A stretch of DNA of 64,000 nucleotides, taken from positions 159,095-223,094 of the forward strand of contig JBOEGD010000004.1 in assembly GCA_050633245.1 (NCBI GenBank), read 5' to 3'. The notes under the pieces are model-generated. The model saw only the letters and a program-made list of their open reading frames with translations. It was not told the origin of the DNA and searched no databases. This document shows, one piece after another, positions 42,895-51,606 of the stretch. The translations under genes were made by a program, and so were the position numbers. The stretch is from Calditrichia bacterium (GTDB lineage: Bacteria; Calditrichota; Calditrichia; RBG-13-44-9; J075). Numbering within the stretch: position 1 is the stretch's first letter; every line of letters begins with the position of its first letter.

Positions 42895-43227
42895 TTAGAA
42901 TCCGGGCAGTTTAAAACCACCGGGCATATTGCCCATCGGCCCCATGCTTTTCTGCATTTCTTCCTGTGAGCGTTTTGAAGCATTTTCCATTGCTTGATTA
43001 ACCGCTGCAACAATCAAGTCTTCCAGCATTTCCTTGTCTTCCGGATCGACAACTTCCTGCTCAATCTCGATACTAACTATTTGGTTCTGGCAATTGGCAG
43101 TAACTTTAACCATACCACCACCAGCAGTGCCTTCTACCGTAATTTCTGCAAGACGCTCCTGAGCTTTGGCCATGTCTTCCTGCATTTTTTGCGCTTGCTT
43201 CATTAGTTGATTTAAATTCGGCTTCAT
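42895..43227 (-). CDS. ybaB: YbaB/EbfC nucleoid-associated protein
   Basis: MKQAQKMQ, GTAGGGMVKV, EMLEDLIVAAVN; lies between dnaX and recR. Confidence 0.95.
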   Translation of the reverse strand: MKPNLNQLMKQAQKMQEDMAKAQERLAEITVEGTAGGGMVKVTANCQNQIVSIEIEQEVVDPEDKEMLEDLIVAAVNQAMENASKRSQEEMQKSMGPMGNMPGGFKLPGF

Positions 43228-43250: not shown

Positions 43251-45281
43251 TTATTCTATATCTTCACAATCAAATGTATCGATTATCTTCTTCAGTACTT
43301 CATCTTTATCTTTAATGCTCTGTAATATCTCCTGTGGAGATTTAATCTCTTTTACAAGACCAGCTTCCGCAAAGCTTTGTTTCACACAAAGTAATTTTAG
43401 GGATGAACCAAACAAAGTGTTTAGTGCTCTTTCGACAGCATCGGCATTCTTTTGCACATGCTCGAGGTGAAATTCTGTTTTGGGATCGAATGCGACCTGC
43501 AGCTGATTATTTTCGATCTTAAACGGCACACCATCCTGCAAAAAGGAGCCAAGGGCTATCTTTTCTTTTCGGACTTCATCCACAATATCTATCCAGCGGG
43601 CTTTTATGGTATCAAAGGATGTATCATCGCTGTTTTTACTTACCGGTGGTTGTGGCAGTGGTGCTGACTTCGGCTGTGGCGGTATTACAGTCTGTGTTGC
43701 TGCCGATTCTGTGGCAGAGTCGCCGTTAGGCGCACTCGGCTTAAAGGCTAATGGTTCGACTTTCGGTTGCGTATTCTCTTCTTGCTGAATAACCGGTGCA
43801 CTTATTTTTGGCACGGGTGGAAGAAAGACCTCTTCCGAAACCAGTGTTTGTCGCACCGCTTTATTCGCCGCAGGGGGAGATGGTTCTGCAGGCTGTGGAG
43901 GCGTTACTTTAGCTGTCAGTGACTGCGGATATGTCGTTTCTGTCGGTCCATCAGTCGCGGGAGAACCGTTAATTTGAGGGGCAGTTGGCAAGGTCTTTTC
44001 TGAGGGAGCAGACTGGACATTAATGTCGGGAGCGAGCGGAAGTTTCCTGTTTTCCACTTGCTCTTCCGGAACGACAGAGGAGGATGATTGAATTGGCTCA
44101 GGGACGTCGGTTTTTTGAACTATTGGTGCCGCAGCGGGGCTTATTTCAGTTTTTTTTTGTGCCGACGCCGTGTCCGGGGCGTTTTTAAGCAACTTCATTA
44201 GTTCTTCCAGATCCGGAACCTTAGGCTTATGCGCAATCTTCAATAACAGTAGTTCAATCACCAATCTTGGATTCTCGCTAAACTTTAGCATCGATTCGCT
44301 GGTTGTCAGCAGATCCAGATACTGTAGCAAGTCGCCCTCGTCAAAACTCTTGGCATCTGCCAGATATTGATCTTTGTAGTGATCAGATATTTCCAGAAGA
44401 GTCGCATTTCCCGTAGCAGTAACAACCAGCAGATTTCGAAAATGTTCTTCCAAACCCTGTAGAAAATTTAACAGGTCGTGTCCGGTCTCGAACAGATCCT
44501 GTGCGAAATGGATTACGGCGCCACCGTCTTTTTGTTGTATCAGGCGCGTAAAGCGAAAGTAAAGCTCTTCGTTGATAACGCCCAGCGATTGCTGAACGTT
44601 TTGTATTGTCACCTTGCCATCGCTGAATGAGGCCAGCTGATCCATAATGCTGGTCGCATCGCGCATACCGCCATCAGACTTTCTGGCAATTAGCATCAGA
44701 CTGTCCTGGTCAATCTCAATCTTTTCTTCTGAGGCTATTTTACTGAGCTGTTCAGCAATTAATCGAGTTGGAATGCGTTTAAAATCAAACCGTTGACAGC
44801 GAGAGAGAATGGTAAGCGGTACTTTGTGTATTTCGGTTGTGGCAAAGATGAAGATCGCATGCGATGGTGGCTCTTCAAGCGTCTTTAGGAGCGCATTAAA
44901 GGCCTCTTTACTAAGCATGTGAACTTCGTCGATGATGTAAATCTTATGGGAAGAAGAAACAGGTGCAAAGCGAATATTCTCTCGCAGGTTGCGGATCTCG
45001 TCGATTCCGCGATTACTGGCACCATCGATCTCGATAATATCCAGGGTAGATGATGTGTCTTCGGGAGTGATACCGTTTACTGCTTTGGCAAGTAACCTTG
45101 CTGTAGATGTTTTCCCAACACCGCGTGGGCCGGCAAAAATAAAGGCATGGCCAAGGCGATTTTGCTCAAGCGCATTTACTAAGGTACGCGTTACGTGCTC
45201 TTGTCCGATTACCTCTTCGAACGTCTTTGGGCGCCATTTTCGGGCCCAAACGATATAGTTCTTTGCTCCGGAGTCGCTCAT
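43251..45281 (-). CDS. dnaX: DNA polymerase III subunits gamma/tau
   Basis: ARKWRP, GPRGVGKTS, IIDEVHMLS, SRCQRFDF, Pro-rich linker, C-terminal domain. Probable start at ATG 45281. Confidence 0.96.
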   Translation of the reverse strand: MSDSGAKNYIVWARKWRPKTFEEVIGQEHVTRTLVNALEQNRLGHAFIFAGPRGVGKTSTARLLAKAVNGITPEDTSSTLDIIEIDGASNRGIDEIRNLRENIRFAPVSSSHKIYIIDEVHMLSKEAFNALLKTLEEPPSHAIFIFATTEIHKVPLTILSRCQRFDFKRIPTRLIAEQLSKIASEEKIEIDQDSLMLIARKSDGGMRDATSIMDQLASFSDGKVTIQNVQQSLGVINEELYFRFTRLIQQKDGGAVIHFAQDLFETGHDLLNFLQGLEEHFRNLLVVTATGNATLLEISDHYKDQYLADAKSFDEGDLLQYLDLLTTSESMLKFSENPRLVIELLLLKIAHKPKVPDLEELMKLLKNAPDTASAQKKTEISPAAAPIVQKTDVPEPIQSSSSVVPEEQVENRKLPLAPDINVQSAPSEKTLPTAPQINGSPATDGPTETTYPQSLTAKVTPPQPAEPSPPAANKAVRQTLVSEEVFLPPVPKISAPVIQQEENTQPKVEPLAFKPSAPNGDSATESAATQTVIPPQPKSAPLPQPPVSKNSDDTSFDTIKARWIDIVDEVRKEKIALGSFLQDGVPFKIENNQLQVAFDPKTEFHLEHVQKNADAVERALNTLFGSSLKLLCVKQSFAEAGLVKEIKSPQEILQSIKDKDEVLKKIIDTFDCEDIE

Positions 45282-45357
45282 GTTTTCCTGCTTTTTATAA
45301 CCAGAACAGAATAGCACAAAATTTGGTGATTGTCAATTGAGAATAGACAAAAAAAAT

Positions 45358-45456
45358 ATGCCAGGCGACCCCACGGCACATAGTTCATATACCTACCGTT
45401 GCTTCCTTCCGGACCTGGCGGAGTTCGGTACTGCTCTATTGCGTGGGACCTGGCAT
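45358..45456 (-). ncRNA. ffs: Signal recognition particle RNA (small type)
   Basis: Contains CCGCCAGGTCCGGAAGGAAGCAACGG (helix 8 with GGAA tetraloop); ends pair as ATGCCAGG/CCTGGCAT; followed by a T-run; upstream of dnaX. Confidence 0.95.
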
Positions 45457-45460
45457 TTTT

Positions 45461-45520
45461 TGGTAGAGTCGCAGGGAATCGAACCCCATTAGTGTTTTAA
45501 CACCATCGCCCGATCGCTCT
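45461..45520 (-). ncRNA. 60-nt tRNA-like element (T-arm, acceptor stem, CCA; no canonical D or anticodon arm)
   Basis: AGAGCG ATCGGGCGA TGGTGT-TAAA-ACACTA A TGGGG-TTCGATT-CCCTG CGACTCT A CCA. Confidence 0.65.
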
Positions 45521-45536
45521 TTACAAATGGACGCAT

Positions 45537-45565
45537 AATATAGAATGGCCTTGAGGAAAAAGCAA
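45537..45565 (-). promoter_or_regulatory. Putative sigma-70 promoter for the tRNA-like RNA and ffs
   Basis: TTGCTT-17 nt-TATATT on the minus strand; -10 box ends 16 nt before the tRNA-like element. Confidence 0.65.
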
Positions 45566-45830
45566 CTGTAAAAAGATTGTCGTCTGTTAGACGTTGTTTG
45601 AGTGAAAAGAATCACAAGTATCTTGTCTTACGTGCGTTCAATCACACATACTTGAGTAGATGAGAAGTATCATTACATACCTCGATTGAAGCAGTTCAAA
45701 TACCTTCCTCACGGATGGGTGTCATACTCTGGGAATACCGGCTTATAGACGTACTGGAATAGGCACTGGATAATTGAAACCTTATTACTGATAAACCCCA
45801 GCTTTTTTTGGAAATTGATTTCCGGAGTTA

Positions 45831-47108
45831 TTGCGCATGAAAATTTATTTGCTGATAGCGGCAGTTGTGTTGTCAATAGGCATGCCTCTTCACAGCCAGT
45901 CAATAACGGAAAAAAGAAGCAGTACTATTTCTGCCCAAGCGGGTTGGCAAGAGTTCGAACCGCTAAGCATTGATGGTTATTTTAATATTGTGAATCGTGG
46001 CATAACGCGTCTGTACTGCGAGCTAAACGACCGTCGTTTTACGCTCACCACATTTCCAGAGGAAGTGCGGCGTGGCGATTTTATTTACTTGATCCCGGTA
46101 CGAGATACGGTGATGATCGATATTTTTGCCTATCTAAATCCCGGATTTTTTGAGATAACAAAATTGCGGATTCTTCCGCAGGGGCCTTCTGGGGCGGCAG
46201 CAGATTTGATTATTGCAGATGCCTCCGGTCGTCTTAAGGAAAACGTCGATTTTGCTCTTCAGCTGGACTTACAGAATGAAGGTGATGCAAATGGTGATGG
46301 CGCAACGCATGAAGGTGACGATCAATTTGTCGAATTGGTTAATACCGGTGACGTTCCTATCGATCTGAACGGCTGGAGAATAGATATCGACTCTGATGTC
46401 TGGCATGATTTTACTTCAGAGCGCATTGTTGAACCGGGAGAAGCTCTTGTTGTTTTTGGTGGTGGAAATCCACAGGGAATTCAAAGTGAATTTGAACTGG
46501 CCAGTAAGCCGGGCGGATTTGGACTATACTATGGTATTGGAAGTAAAACAGATGTTGTTCGTTTGATCAATGACCTGGATGTTGAGATAGACACCGCGTC
46601 TTATGACTTTACCGGGGACGTTGGTCAATCCTTAACACGGCTGCCGGAAGGCGAAGGGGCCTTTGTCTTCCATATCGACGCTGTGGGGAGTGGTAGACAG
46701 CTTTTTTCGCCGGGAACGAACGTGGCGGGTAATACCCAGTTCTCAACCTCTTCAATGGGTGGAATACGCATTAATGAGATTCACGCAGATCCAGCTGCAG
46801 ATGAACGACAGTTTCCGGAAGAAATAGATTTATTGCAAAACGCGCCAAATCCATTTAACGGTGCTACGCGCATACGATTTACCGTTCCGGAAAACCGATT
46901 GTTTGGAATTCCGGTAAAACTGCGTATTTACAATTTACTTGGCCAACGAGTTAAAACAATTGTAGATGGAACACTTTTTCCGGGAGATTTTCAGCTGACC
47001 TGGAATGCCGATGACGATGCCGGTAGACAAGTAGCTAGTGGGGTTTATATGTTGCAGTTGGAGATAGATGGTATTCAAAAGACGCGGCGAATCGTGTTAG
47101 CACGATAA
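45831..47108 (+). CDS. Secreted protein with lamin-tail-like domain and T9SS-type CTD
   Basis: Signal peptide; GDANGDG..DQFVELVN..DLNGW..ALVVFGGG..SPGT; QNAPNPFN...ASGVY. Confidence 0.82.
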   Translation: MRMKIYLLIAAVVLSIGMPLHSQSITEKRSSTISAQAGWQEFEPLSIDGYFNIVNRGITRLYCELNDRRFTLTTFPEEVRRGDFIYLIPVRDTVMIDIFAYLNPGFFEITKLRILPQGPSGAAADLIIADASGRLKENVDFALQLDLQNEGDANGDGATHEGDDQFVELVNTGDVPIDLNGWRIDIDSDVWHDFTSERIVEPGEALVVFGGGNPQGIQSEFELASKPGGFGLYYGIGSKTDVVRLINDLDVEIDTASYDFTGDVGQSLTRLPEGEGAFVFHIDAVGSGRQLFSPGTNVAGNTQFSTSSMGGIRINEIHADPAADERQFPEEIDLLQNAPNPFNGATRIRFTVPENRLFGIPVKLRIYNLLGQRVKTIVDGTLFPGDFQLTWNADDDAGRQVASGVYMLQLEIDGIQKTRRIVLAR

Positions 47109-47457: not shown

Positions 47458-50400
47458 ATGGCAAACCAATACCGTTCAGCTCCGCGTATTTTGCGGCTTG
47501 CCATGTGCGCTCTCATTCTAAGCGGATGGGGATTTGCACAGAACAAAATTGAAAACAAAACACCCGTGAGCATTGAGCACTTCCTGCAGCACAACGGGCA
47601 GGGTGATATTACCTTGCAAAAGCTTGAGCGCGGAACGCCGGACAGCCGCTTTACCGTGCCTTTTGTTCGCGGCAATGTCTTTGCTGCTGTTGCAAATGGC
47701 TCGGTTCAGCACTATGATAATAATGGGAATCTGCTGGAAACGTTAGATTCCGGTCTTGGTGGTTTTACCACAGGCATGGCCTCTGATGCTGATGGTAATC
47801 TCTACATGACCAATTTTACGGGTGGATTTATTTCCCGCTTTACCGGCCCGGCAGATCCCCATACTCACTCGGTGTTCGCGACTGCTGATTTGGCATCTTC
47901 CGTTGAATCGATTCTTTTCGATCAAAATGGTGACACTTACGTGGGACAGGCTGCCGGAACGTCTGATATTATCAAATACAACGATGCCGGAACTGAAATC
48001 GCACGTTACGATGTCAGTGTCGGCCCGCGTGGTTCGGACTGGATTGATTTATCTGCGGATCAGACAACCATGTTCTACACGTCTGAGGGTTCAGATATTT
48101 TGCGCTATGACGTCGTGAATAATGTCCAGCTTACGCCCTTCGTTTCCTCACTTCCCGGAACGGCTGCTTATGCACTTCGCCTGTTACCCGGAGGCGGCAT
48201 ACTCGTTGCGGACTCCGAGCGAATTCATCGTTTGGACAGCAACGGAACGATTGCGCAGTCTTATGATGCAACCGGACAGGATAATTGGTTCGCTCTAAAC
48301 CTCGATCCCGACGGCACATCTTTCTGGAGTGGAGACTTTAATACATCGAACTTTTATCGATTCGATATCGCAAGCGGTGATATTCTTGCCGGCCCGATTA
48401 ATACCGGTACCGGCACATTTACGTTATTCGGTCTATCTGTTTTTGGCGAGATTACCGTAAGCACAAATAATCCGCCTGTTTGTGAGATTACCCCTGCCGG
48501 TCCATTTACCGTGCAGGAAGGCGATTTACTCACATTTGACATTACGGCCTTCGATCCCAACATTAATGATCCTATTACCATTGAAGTTGTTAATTTGCCT
48601 GCAAATGCTACGATGACTCCTAGCCTGCCGCTTACCGGCCCCTCTGGTGTGTCTTCAACATTCGAGTGGATACCGCAATATGGTCAGAGTGGTTCATTCG
48701 AAGTCTCTTTTACTGTCACGGATTCTTCCGGTGCAGCAGATACTTGTGATGTCTCTATCTTTGTTGAAGAACTGGAACGCTCTCCGCACTGTAGCATCGA
48801 CCCGATGGGTCCGTATGTTGTAGATGAAGGGCAACTTGTTGAATTTACCGTTACCGCGTTGGATTCAAACTTAAACGACCAGGTTACACTGAGCGTTTTT
48901 AATTCCTTACCATCTGGTGCGGGAATGACGCCAACGTTGCCAATTACCGGTGCACCCGGCATTTCTTCAGATTTTAGCTGGACTCCGGCTAGCGGACAGG
49001 CCGGCACTTATCGAGTAACCTTTTCGGTAGAAGACAATTCCGCTGGTGGAGGCGGTGGATTTCGCGCAGCCGCCGGATCGTTCGACTCCTGTTCGGTGAC
49101 AATTATTGTCAACGAGCCAAACGTCGATCCGTCCTGCGATATTAGTCCACCCGGACCATTCGTGCTAACAACAGGTGAGACCGTTGGCTTTACCGTAACG
49201 GCAACTGACCCGAATACGGGTGAAACAGTAACGATTGACTCTGGGAACCTGCCTACTGGTTCCACTATGAACCCGGCACTTCCAGCAAGTGGCTCCAGCG
49301 GCACGTCTTCAGATTTCAGTTGGACACCCGCCGTTGGTCAGGAAGGAAGTTACACCGTTAGTTATACTATTAGCGATGCTGCCGGTGCCACATCTACCTG
49401 TGATGTTTCCATCACAGTTCTGGAAGCCAATATCGACCCGACCTGTGGTATTTCCCCATCCGGTCCGTTTACTGTTACCGTTGGCAATGCACTTAGCTTT
49501 ACCGTAACCGGCACCGACGCCAATAGCAGTGACTTAATAACGATTATCAGCAGCACCTTGCCTACCGGCTCTGCGATGAACCCGGCTCTGCCATTGACCG
49601 GCCCAAGTGGGATATCCTCTGATTTTAACTGGGCACCAGTTGAAGGTCAGGAAGGCAACTACTCCATAACCTATACAATCACTGATACCAGCGGAGCGAG
49701 CTGTAGCAGCATCGTTGATATCCTGGTTGAAGCGGCACCACCGGTAAATGAGCCACCAGTATGTGTCTTTAGTTCCACCGGCCCATTTACTGTTACCGTT
49801 GGCAATGCCTTAAACTTCACTGTTGCCGGAACAGACGTCAATAACGGTGATTTGATTACAATAACCAGTAGCACACTGCCTACCGGCTCTGCGATGAACC
49901 CGGCTCTGCCTTTGACCGGCCCCAGTGGAATATCCTCAGATTTTAGTTGGACGCCTACAACAGGTCAGGAAGGTAACTATTCCATAACCTATACGATCAC
50001 GGATACCAGTGGCGCAAGTTGTGGTAATACCGTGGAAATATTAGTTGAAGCAGCGCCTCCGATCAACGTACCGCCGGTTTGTAATCTCGATCCGTCCGGT
50101 CCGTTTACGATAACCGTTGGCAACGCGCTGAACTTTACCGTCACGGGCACCGATGCCAATGCCGGCGACCTTATAACGATTAACAGTAGCACCTTGCCGA
50201 GCGGTTCGACAATGGATCCTGCACTTCCGGTGACTGGCCCAAGTGGTATCTCTTCGATATTTGATTGGATACCAACTGCTGGTCAGGAAGGTACTTATAC
50301 GATAACCTACACAACGACTGATAGCAGCGGAGCAAGCTGCAGCACCGTGGTTGATATCTTGGTTGAAGCAGCGCCTCCGATTAACGTGCCGCCGGTCTGT

Positions 50401-51606
50401 AATCTCGATCCGTCCGGTCCGTTTACGATAACTGTTGGCAACGCGCTGAACTTTACCGTTACCGGTACTGATGCCAATGCCGGCGACCTGATAACGATTA
50501 ACAGTAGCACCTTGCCGAGCGGTTCGACAATGGATCCTGCACTTCCGGTGACCGGCCCCAGCGGTATCTCTTCGTTATTTGACTGGACGCCAACTGCAGG
50601 TCAGGAAGGTAATTATACCATAACCTATACCACGACTGATAGCAGCGGAGCAAGTTGTAGCACCGTGGTTGATATCGTAGTTGAAGCAGCGCCTCCGGTA
50701 AATGAGGCTCCGTTTTGTAGTCTTGATCCTGCCGGCCCGTTCATTGTAAACGTGGGCGATGCGGTAGACTTTGTCGTAACGGGAATAGATCCAAATTCTG
50801 GCGACATTGTAACGATAGACGGCAGCAATCTGCCGACTGGTTCTGTGATGAATCCGGCACTACCGGTCAGCGGTGCTGACACCGTGAGTTCAGCGTTCAA
50901 CTGGACGCCTGTAGCGGGTCAGGAAGGTGATTATACAATTACCTACATCATTAGTGATAACAATGGTGCCAGTGATACCTGCGACGTTGCGATTACGGTG
51001 AACACCATCGGCACGGCCGGAGATTCTATTGCGCCGTTCTGCCAGATTACTGCGAACGACCCCGGACCACCGGAGACTATCGAAGTAACGGTTCAGGATT
51101 TTGAGTCTGGAATAGCTGAGGTTAACATTCTGAATACGACGAATGCCTCAATTGCCATTCCGGCTTTTAGCCCGGGAACGAATGATGCACTCATCATTAT
51201 CGCGACCAAGCTCGATCCAAATGAGTCTGCTACGGTTGTGCTTCAGGTGATTGACGTTGAAGGAAACATTACTGTTTGTGATCCGGTTTATCAGACGGTC
51301 TCAGCAGTTATTCCGGAAGGCTTCGTGCTGGAGCAAAACTTCCCGAATCCGTTTAACCCGAACACGCTGATTCGCTTTGATGTGCCTGCAACATCACTGG
51401 GTGCTCAAACGGTTAGCTTGCGTGTGTATGATATTAGCGGTCGCGAAATTCGCACGCTGATCAACGAAGCGGTTCAGCCTGGTCAGCATCAGGTTGAGTG
51501 GGATGGTCTCAGCAACAACGGTTCTCACGTCGCTGGCGGTATCTATTTCTATCGTCTGGTGTCTGGTGACTATGTCGCGACGCGGAAGATGGTCTACATG
51601 AAGTAG
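47458..51606 (+). CDS. Large surface protein: beta-propeller head, 8 Ig/cadherin-like repeats, T9SS-type CTD
   Basis: AAGGAG RBS, signal peptide, propeller-like blades, eight units of about 100-106 aa (N.PP.C..GPF..F.W.P..GQ.G.Y), QNFPNPFNP...RKMVYMK. Confidence 0.87.
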   Translation: MANQYRSAPRILRLAMCALILSGWGFAQNKIENKTPVSIEHFLQHNGQGDITLQKLERGTPDSRFTVPFVRGNVFAAVANGSVQHYDNNGNLLETLDSGLGGFTTGMASDADGNLYMTNFTGGFISRFTGPADPHTHSVFATADLASSVESILFDQNGDTYVGQAAGTSDIIKYNDAGTEIARYDVSVGPRGSDWIDLSADQTTMFYTSEGSDILRYDVVNNVQLTPFVSSLPGTAAYALRLLPGGGILVADSERIHRLDSNGTIAQSYDATGQDNWFALNLDPDGTSFWSGDFNTSNFYRFDIASGDILAGPINTGTGTFTLFGLSVFGEITVSTNNPPVCEITPAGPFTVQEGDLLTFDITAFDPNINDPITIEVVNLPANATMTPSLPLTGPSGVSSTFEWIPQYGQSGSFEVSFTVTDSSGAADTCDVSIFVEELERSPHCSIDPMGPYVVDEGQLVEFTVTALDSNLNDQVTLSVFNSLPSGAGMTPTLPITGAPGISSDFSWTPASGQAGTYRVTFSVEDNSAGGGGGFRAAAGSFDSCSVTIIVNEPNVDPSCDISPPGPFVLTTGETVGFTVTATDPNTGETVTIDSGNLPTGSTMNPALPASGSSGTSSDFSWTPAVGQEGSYTVSYTISDAAGATSTCDVSITVLEANIDPTCGISPSGPFTVTVGNALSFTVTGTDANSSDLITIISSTLPTGSAMNPALPLTGPSGISSDFNWAPVEGQEGNYSITYTITDTSGASCSSIVDILVEAAPPVNEPPVCVFSSTGPFTVTVGNALNFTVAGTDVNNGDLITITSSTLPTGSAMNPALPLTGPSGISSDFSWTPTTGQEGNYSITYTITDTSGASCGNTVEILVEAAPPINVPPVCNLDPSGPFTITVGNALNFTVTGTDANAGDLITINSSTLPSGSTMDPALPVTGPSGISSIFDWIPTAGQEGTYTITYTTTDSSGASCSTVVDILVEAAPPINVPPVCNLDPSGPFTITVGNALNFTVTGTDANAGDLITINSSTLPSGSTMDPALPVTGPSGISSLFDWTPTAGQEGNYTITYTTTDSSGASCSTVVDIVVEAAPPVNEAPFCSLDPAGPFIVNVGDAVDFVVTGIDPNSGDIVTIDGSNLPTGSVMNPALPVSGADTVSSAFNWTPVAGQEGDYTITYIISDNNGASDTCDVAITVNTIGTAGDSIAPFCQITANDPGPPETIEVTVQDFESGIAEVNILNTTNASIAIPAFSPGTNDALIIIATKLDPNESATVVLQVIDVEGNITVCDPVYQTVSAVIPEGFVLEQNFPNPFNPNTLIRFDVPATSLGAQTVSLRVYDISGREIRTLINEAVQPGQHQVEWDGLSNNGSHVAGGIYFYRLVSGDYVATRKMVYMK
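48466..51003 (+). repeat. Intragenic tandem repeats, about 309-318 bp period in the later copies
   Basis: Units starting at 50065 and 50383 are near-identical at DNA level; antisense shadow ORFs recur at 49362, 49671, 49989, 50307 and 50625. Confidence 0.92.

Follow-up and report, generated by a model that had tools for sequence, protein, structure and literature searches.

Immediately upstream of the SRP RNA gene (ffs) of a Calditrichia bacterium lies a 60-nt tRNA-like element that, as its position and comparison with related loci indicate, is a remodelled descendant of a tRNA-Ala(CGC) gene. The features needed for charging and decoding are lost, whereas the acceptor/T-arm half, the T loop, and RCCA are retained, and the evidence tips toward a vestigial tRNA that survives as a tRNA-like module for processing the ffs transcript. 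The window, that is, the whole stretch of DNA that was analyzed, is 64,000 nt long, and the locus is organized within it as follows.

45565-45560 and 45542-45535, minus strand: putative promoter, TTGCTT, 17 nt, TATATT(AT), from the sequence and the family alignment
45521-45534, minus strand: 5' leader, 14 nt from the end of the promoter box to the element
45461-45520, minus strand: tRNA-like element, 60 nt, read from the sequence
45456-45460, minus strand: A5 spacer (AAAAA) from the CCA to the SRP RNA, read from the sequence
45356-45455, minus strand: SRP RNA (ffs), small bacterial type (RF00169, 72.6 bits, E 3e-14)
45348-45355, minus strand: T run after the SRP hairpin, a likely intrinsic terminator judging from the sequence
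45336-45308, minus strand: promoter of dnaX itself, TTGACA-17-TATTCT, from the promoter scan
43251-45281, minus strand: dnaX (Pfam DNA_pol3_delta2, gamma3, and DnaX_C)
42895-43227, minus strand: ybaB/ebfC, 3' of dnaX (YbaB_DNA_bd)

The element itself divides into the following parts, each read from the sequence.

45520-45515, minus strand: acceptor 5' strand
45514-45506, minus strand: 9-nt GGG linker at the D-arm position
45505-45490, minus strand: hairpin of 6 bp with a 4-nt loop at the anticodon-arm position
45489, minus strand: single A, a 1-nt variable region
45488-45472, minus strand: T arm, 5 bp with the loop TTCGATT
45471-45465, minus strand: acceptor 3' strand with a bulged A at 45469
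45464, minus strand: discriminator A
45463-45461, minus strand: encoded CCA

The minus-strand string quoted in the preliminary description of this DNA and the parts named there (T loop, bulged acceptor, A, CCA, 9-nt linker, and hairpin) are exact at 45520-45461; the spacer to ffs, given there as 4 nt, is actually 5 nt (AAAAA, 45460-45456), the Rfam match to the SRP RNA starting at 45455. The acceptor stem consists of 4 bp, the bulged A, and 2 bp; the linker that replaces the D arm is 8 to 9 nt long and lacks a D stem; and the middle hairpin can be drawn either as 5 bp with a 6-nt loop or as 6 bp with a 4-nt loop. The element is present once in the genome, and this single copy rules out a repeat or mobile element. 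When the whole genome was scanned for a T-loop motif on a 5-bp T stem, 34 matches fell inside called tRNAs and 21 outside, and among the latter, read manually, the element is the sole complete non-tRNA with a strong stem and ACCA. The CCA is encoded in 2 of the 35 tRNA genes of this genome.

The element is not called a tRNA by either of the search methods applied. ARAGORN found 0 tRNA genes in the 64,000-nt window, and RF00005 gave no match at E<=10 in Rfam searches of the element region over 401 nt and over 101 nt, in which a tRNA match dropped by clan competition, if any, scored below a 7.2-bit tmRNA fragment. The best Rfam model on the element itself is mascRNA-menRNA (RF01684), at 18.4 bits against a cut-off of 42.5. 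The permuted tmRNA model (RF04321) reaches 18.6 bits with the SRP flank and 11.0 bits without it, against a cut-off of 47, in a weak match that spans the T arm, the acceptor 3' strand, and ACCA. The element lies outside every Rfam family tested. It is next to negligibly probable that the element still works as a tRNA or supplies the acceptor piece of a two-piece tmRNA. It does have a T loop, an acceptor stem, a discriminator A, and CCA, and the permuted tmRNA match, weak as it is, points the same way, but a D stem is absent, the loop in the anticodon position has 4 or 6 nt, A3-U70 replaces G3:U70, and ARAGORN and RF00005 are silent even at 101 nt. The acceptor piece in particular was rejected: the match is far below the cut-off and weakens once the SRP flank is removed, and contig C9 bears a standard one-piece tmRNA (148.3 bits) for which ARAGORN gives a tag peptide. 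A bacterial Y RNA of the YrlA kind was also ruled out, since Ro60/TROVE (PF05731) had 0 matches in this 97% complete genome, the control matching in Deinococcus and Bacteroides. The resemblance to tmRNA, Y RNA, and mascRNA that had been pointed out at the outset thus holds as analogy only.

The arrangement of the locus suggests that the element and ffs are transcribed together. The box TTGCTT-17-TATATT, previously described as a promoter and with its TATATT hexamer at 45542-45537, aligns in position and spacing with the conserved TTGAC(TTT)..TA(A/T)ATT box that precedes the tRNA-Ala(CGC) genes of the family; it is, however, absent from the boxes listed by the sigma-70 scanner, its first hexamer matching at only 3 of 6 positions. 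The leaders of family members, read manually, are 15 to 23 nt long and similar in make-up to that of the element. Neither manual reading nor the promoter scan revealed a promoter-like box between the element and ffs, which is the single SRP RNA match in the genome. Because the spacer is 5 nt long and a single promoter is shared, co-transcription is probable, and the primary transcript would consist of the leader, the tRNA-like element, A5, the SRP RNA, and the terminator. In the folded precursor, the A-run spacer is predicted to pair with the U run 3' of the SRP RNA.

The origin of the element was traced through homologous loci in relatives, which were pulled with the SRP RNA of the window as the query. 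A full-length tRNA-Ala(CGC) gene stands before ffs in 23 of 29 related loci, in 11 of the 15 other genomes of the same family (the whole family was sampled, 16 genomes), and, with G040 as a second reference genome, in 16 of the 30 loci around it; seven further genomes of family f4 that also have it were found via the junction pattern and are not an unbiased sample. Across the phylum, represented by 86 genomes in the collection, 68 other genomes were examined: 50 have a normal tRNA-Ala(CGC) before ffs-dnaX, 3 have a degenerate tRNA-like sequence before ffs, and 15, of which 4 are among the 15 genomes of the same family, have an examined ffs flank devoid of any tRNA or tRNA-like sequence. The tRNA-Ala(CGC) at the ffs locus is almost invariant across relatives. 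The genome under study (G000) encodes 35 tRNAs and a tmRNA, with alanine represented by GGC only; tRNA-Ala(CGC) was not found among the 35 tRNAs of this 59-contig, 97% complete draft, and the Ala(UGC) gene is missing too, probably together with the rRNA operon that was not assembled.

Since relatives carry tRNA-Ala(CGC) at the same place and this genome has none, the element descends from that gene, with which it shares, besides its place, homology of the promoter and leader, the T loop, ACCA, and the acceptor/T-stem framework. The homology of the promoter and leader to those of intact genes further implies that the change was internal to the gene and that the 5' side was not replaced; the same homology rules out a remnant of an integrase att site. 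A tRNA fragment of another kind, of the att-remnant type, precedes ffs in one other genome (G017). The encoded CCA was probably inherited, too, given that 5 of 11 tRNA-Ala(CGC) genes of the family encode it. By descent, the element is accordingly a tRNA-Ala(CGC) pseudogene or relic. The preliminary description had posed a choice between a mimic or processing handle and a decayed tRNA gene; the origin by decay is borne out by the full tRNAs of the relatives and the processing half looks retained, so that the two alternatives are not exclusive.

The exact path of the change is less clear-cut than its starting point. The motif AGAGCG is identical to the old acceptor 5' strand at 4 of 7 positions and to the old D-stem 3' strand at 6 of 6, and the MAFFT alignment put it in a third register. 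A deletion of tRNA positions 1 to 20, with AGAGCG as the former D-stem 3' strand, could therefore be an alternative indel history; the descent from tRNA-Ala(CGC) is independent of that history. The spacing to ffs changed as well. Spacers between the tRNA and ffs within the family, read manually, range from ~15 to 115 nt, so the tight junction between the element and ffs is specific to this lineage. In families f4 and f6, the tRNA-to-SRP RNA spacer is 0 to 4 nt, and in f4 alone it is 0 to 2 nt; tRNA ends and SRP RNA starts that lie so close together in f4 fit a single cut that makes both ends.

To see which parts were lost and which were kept, the element was compared pair by pair with a tRNA of the family (L050), the register in the anticodon arm being chosen by hand and leaning toward structure. 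The T loop is identical at 7 of 7 positions and ACCA at 4 of 4. Three substitutions in the T stem fall in two pairs, both of which are still paired, and pair 1-72 changed on both sides, from G-C to A-U. Among the 17 comparable pairs, 6 are the same, 8 are changed but paired, and 3 are broken; the broken ones are the three inner acceptor pairs in the old register, rescued only as 2 pairs plus the bulged A. Conversely, the D stem is gone and the D loop has shrunk from 17 nt to 7, the variable region has kept one base of five, and the anticodon loop, at 6 nt, has lost one base and with it the CGC anticodon, although a clean hairpin of 5 to 6 bp stands at the site of the former anticodon arm. The G3:U70 of the relatives, the identity pair for AlaRS, has become A-U. 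At 60 nt, the element is shorter than a normal tRNA gene of 73 to 76 nt, which scores 70 bits with Rfam. Thus, missing the D stem and the CGC loop, with a 1-nt variable region, A3-U70, and a bulged acceptor, and failing both ARAGORN and Rfam where the ancestral gene does not, the element is no longer able to decode.

An independent strain provides a second view of the element. A contig of 28.8 kb from run X1 aligns over 45100-45789 and differs there by 23 substitutions and 4 one-base gaps (~96% identity), among the gaps one A fewer in the A5 spacer and one T fewer at 45349. The element differs by one substitution, at 45508, an unpaired linker base; the SRP RNA has 0 differences, and the 269 nt upstream of the element contain 14 changes. 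The recurrence of the element in this independent contig excludes a misassembly. Runs X4, X5, and X6 yielded only short pieces, none of which reached the element. One change in 60 nt compares with ~3 expected from the flank, which, for a single strain pair, is not significant (Poisson P of ~0.2).

These observations bear directly on a neutral explanation, namely, that the element is a tRNA-Ala(CGC) pseudogene that is vanishing and still visible only because it is recent and wedged between ffs and a promoter that cannot be spared; the pairings left in it would then have no function. We hold this to be possible and rather doubtful. Conservation of the element against X1 is, as just noted, not significantly above the intergenic background; multiple deletions have accumulated in the lineage (D arm, variable loop, anticodon loop, and spacer), and the inner acceptor pairs are broken. 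The many complete losses of the tRNA from the ffs locus (in 15 of the 68 genomes and, within the family, in 4 of 15) and the different tRNA fragment in G017 also fit a relic, as does the predicted folding: the z-score of the minimum free energy (MFE) is −0.56, a weak thermodynamic signal, and the tRNA-like fold, at −12.1 kcal/mol, is displaced by an MFE structure of −14.9 kcal/mol in which linker and T loop are base paired, the T arm having an ensemble probability of ~0.06. What speaks against neutral decay is its uneven distribution. The middle of the element is nearly unalignable, yet the T loop and ACCA are intact and the T-stem changes all keep their pairs; by rough arithmetic that assumes 40% change, uniform decay would leave these 11 of 11 positions intact with a probability of ~0.004. 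In addition, the clean hairpin persists at the anticodon-arm position, and the parallel case described below shows that non-decoding tRNA-like sequences can be held for long at this place.

That parallel comes from genus g28, which belongs to another family. Five species of this genus have a normal tRNA 3 to 4 nt before the SRP RNA, whereas three others, G040, G043, and G046, have a degenerate tRNA-like sequence of 69 to 70 nt located 3 nt before it. ARAGORN returns nothing, tRNA-???, and nothing for the three forms, respectively, and the Rfam tRNA model gives no match to them at E<=1, compared with 70 bits for a normal neighbor gene. The three species form one clade, with a nucleotide identity on the dnaX side of 77 to 84% among themselves versus 73 to 76% to other g28 species, and are well diverged. 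Nevertheless, in an unforced MAFFT alignment of the three forms, 63 of 63 stem cells are paired even though 10 of 21 pairs vary, both partners having changed in 2 of these; slid controls are 30 to 48% paired, and a shuffle control (51/500) is not significant with three sequences. Outside the stems, the forms have diverged from a functional tRNA: their anticodon loops are 6 nt (or 8) long with letters that differ in each, position 26 is deleted, two bases of the variable region are gone, and both U8 and A14 are replaced. A3-U70 occurs in G046, and the discriminator is G in G040 and G046. The genome of G040 is complete and contains Ala(GGC) and Ala(UGC) tRNAs, CGC being absent. This reads as a non-decoding tRNA shape under selection at the position before the SRP RNA, and such retention would then occur within the phylum. 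The g28 forms resemble the element in being derived from tRNA-Ala(CGC), in not decoding, in the short A-rich loop and shortened variable region, in the retained T arm and acceptor at 3 to 5 nt before the SRP RNA, and, in G046, in A3-U70. They differ in keeping the D stem, in their length, and in lacking an encoded CCA, and they arose independently. It had initially been allowed that relatives might carry a full-length tRNA here and that this copy might be a unique deletion or a misassembly. Relatives do carry the full-length gene, but the X1 contig repeats the element and three g28 species present a parallel.

Taken with the anatomy, the processing-module reading can be spelled out as a sequence of events. 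The CGC isoacceptor was given up in this lineage, and the gene was stripped of its charging and decoding parts; what it kept is the promoter with the leader, the acceptor and T stems, the T loop, and ACCA. The promoter at 45565-45535 would drive the leader, the tRNA-like element, A5, the SRP RNA, and the terminator as one transcript; RNase P would trim the leader at the 5' end of the element; and a cut at or after the CCA, possibly together with RNase P acting on the SRP RNA itself, would free the SRP RNA, its 5' end now short and defined, and release the tRNA-like part as a by-product of ~60 nt. The retained half is what the enzymes that process tRNA ends recognize: RNase P reads the stack of acceptor and T arm together with the T loop and RCCA, and the nucleases for tRNA 3' ends work beside this region; RNase P also acts on the 4.5S RNA of E. 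coli. The genome has an RNase P RNA (218 bits), and the tRNA-like fold adjoins the SRP RNA at 5 nt in what is probably a single transcript. For RNase Z, the genome gave only sub-cut-off matches of the MBL fold, on contigs C9 and C11, the best at 76 bits versus 293. Several points weigh against a processing handle, among them the long tRNA-ffs spacers of the family, the damaged inner acceptor stem, and the predicted folding described above. Encoded CCA inhibits RNase Z in some bacteria, so that the 3' cut may fall to another enzyme; the 15 of 68 genomes without a tRNA or tRNA-like sequence before ffs imply that a handle is not generally required; and the D-armless form is seen in one lineage only. 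Selection on this copy, like the cleavages themselves, is a suggestion drawn from what has been kept.

A released RNA could instead be the point of the arrangement. On this account, the element is an independent small RNA, a 60-nt, CCA-ending mimic that acts in trans, e.g., by binding a tRNA-binding protein, with processing being secondary. The output of such an RNA would keep pace with that of an abundant one; the CCA has been kept in a genome where just 2 of 35 tRNA genes encode it; the hairpin loop is A rich here (TTAAAA) and in the g28 forms (TTAAAT, TGAAGA, and TAAACT); and the g28 forms keep D and anticodon stems that are superfluous for a pure RNase P minihelix. The account is very doubtful all the same, because no Ro60/TROVE gene was found in the 97% complete genome, the loop sequences differ between the lineages, and the D arm is present in g28 but absent here, so that the common shape is the acceptor/T half only. 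A broader scheme that joins both ideas is something of a long shot: tRNA-Ala(CGC)-SRP RNA would be a true dicistron in which tRNA end processing makes the 5' end of the SRP RNA; once CGC became dispensable, the tRNA would twice, independently, have been stripped to a mimic; and the minimal, 60-nt, D-armless, CCA-encoding product in this genome would be a stable small RNA with a function in trans, as hinted by the short A-rich loop of both lineages.

Several known systems resemble parts of this arrangement. The tRNA-like domain of tmRNA shares with the element an acceptor stem and T arm, a stemless analogue of the D loop, and CCA; in contrast, the element has no mRNA-like part, lacks G3:U70, and scores below the Rfam threshold. 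D-armless mitochondrial tRNAs are composed of the acceptor, a replacement loop, the anticodon arm, a short variable region, and the T arm, in ~55 to 60 nt. The layout is the same, but those tRNAs decode with a 7-nt anticodon loop, which the element cannot. The mascRNA is excised from the 3' end of a longer non-coding RNA, MALAT1. Like the element, it is a tRNA-like RNA of ~60 nt with a short anticodon hairpin (RF01684), a likeness of analogy and not of membership; mascRNA is a vertebrate RNA downstream of its partner RNA, with CCA added, whereas the element lies upstream and encodes its CCA. The t-elements of plant mitochondria (Forner et al. 2007, PMC1920247) are non-decoding tRNA-like sequences by transcript ends that are said to contribute to 5' and 3' end formation; they are organellar, lie beside mRNAs, and had their cleavage mapped experimentally, whereas the present element is known from sequence alone. 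A tRNA also lies upstream of a stable RNA in the tRNA-5S rRNA dicistronic genes of Yarrowia, separated from it by tRNA processing (PMC2566860), and in tRNA-snoRNA dicistrons, from which the snoRNA is released by RNase Z (PMC4247193); the tRNA is functional in both, in contrast to the tRNA-like shell found here. In full-text searches of openly accessible articles, no report was found of a tRNA-like sequence before a bacterial SRP RNA.

Gene finders miss remnants of this kind or label them pseudogenes. The present case suggests that a bacterial tRNA gene may outlive decoding as a structural cutting signal for the essential SRP RNA, a principle that, by analogy, would be the one known from the plant mitochondrial t-elements and from MALAT1/mascRNA. 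If the processing-module reading is true, the element is a natural minimal substrate that defines the in vivo needs of bacterial tRNA-processing enzymes, the widespread proximity of a tRNA gene to ffs-dnaX is explained, and the loci provide a dated series of intermediates from full tRNA through the 70-nt degenerate cloverleaf and the 60-nt D-armless form to complete loss. If it is false, the element is an ordinary decaying tRNA gene.

Relatives were also looked for through DnaX. Scans with this protein yielded none of the same genus, the best identities being 51% among metagenome contigs and 49% among genome contigs. Finally, 80 metagenome loci, which belong to other phyla and say nothing about this element, were examined; 13 of these have an SRP match, and in 9 of the 13 a tRNA-Ser lies upstream.

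The replacement of tRNA-Ala(CGC) in front of the SRP RNA gene (ffs) was also detected in a three-species clade of another genus (g28, which belongs to another family), where a 69-70-nt, non-decoding tRNA-like occupies this position, 3 nt upstream of the SRP RNA. All 21 stem pairs of these tRNA-likes are retained in each of the three species, even though 10 of the 21 are variable. The three loci are as follows.

L134:1529-1598, non-decoding tRNA-like, genome G040
L136:1520-1588, non-decoding tRNA-like, genome G043
L138:1520-1589, non-decoding tRNA-like, genome G046

Other unusual alanine tRNA copies were observed as well. For example, contig C137 of G046 carries, at L247:57-128 and distant from ffs, a second tRNA-Ala-like that ARAGORN reports as tRNA-??? 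with a two-base anticodon; its anticodon arm looks disrupted, and it may be another alanine tRNA in decay or the product of an assembly indel. In genome G017, the SRP RNA is present on two contigs, C152 (L011/L159) and C141 (8832-8923), one of which carries a full tRNA-Ala(CGC) and the other the 3' part alone, starting at the anticodon loop, with unrelated sequence 5' of it. Such a pair fits the pattern expected of the attachment site of an integrative element, or of a bin that mixes two strains.

The junction between the tRNA and the SRP RNA is tight in family f4, where 0 to 2 nt separate the 3' end of tRNA-Ala(CGC) (ACA or ACCA) from the SRP RNA start in G039, G078, G079, G080 and G085, and therefore both mature ends could be obtained by a single cut. 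Among metagenome contigs of other phyla (L054-L133), an SRP RNA was detected next to dnaX in 13 of 80 loci, 9 of which carry a tRNA-Ser (CGA or GGA) upstream of the SRP RNA. Thus, the tRNA-ffs-dnaX linkage recurs outside the Calditrichota, with a different tRNA.

Across the whole genome that contains the window (G000), CCA is encoded in 2 of 35 tRNA genes, those for SeC and one Met, and the RNase Z model yielded only matches below its cut-off (top score, 76 bits; cut-off, 293). Within the window, the A5 spacer before the SRP RNA (45456-45460) is complementary to the T run that follows it (45348-45355), and in the predicted precursor fold the two lengthen the terminal SRP helix. In the X1 strain, an independent, ∼96%-identical contig, the spacer and the T run alike show one-base variation relative to the window.

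Upstream of the tRNA-like/ffs unit, two divergently placed genes were found.

45831-47108, + strand, lamin-tail-domain/FlgD-Ig protein gene
47458-51606, + strand, gene for a 1,382-aa protein with many Ig-like repeats

The 1,382-aa protein matches a type IX secretion C-terminal sorting domain weakly, below the cut-off (E = 7e-4). Upstream of the promoter, a small stem-loop with a run of T after it (45581-45593) is terminator-like on both strands; its stem is not conserved in the X1 strain, where changes at 45581 and 45592 break pairs.
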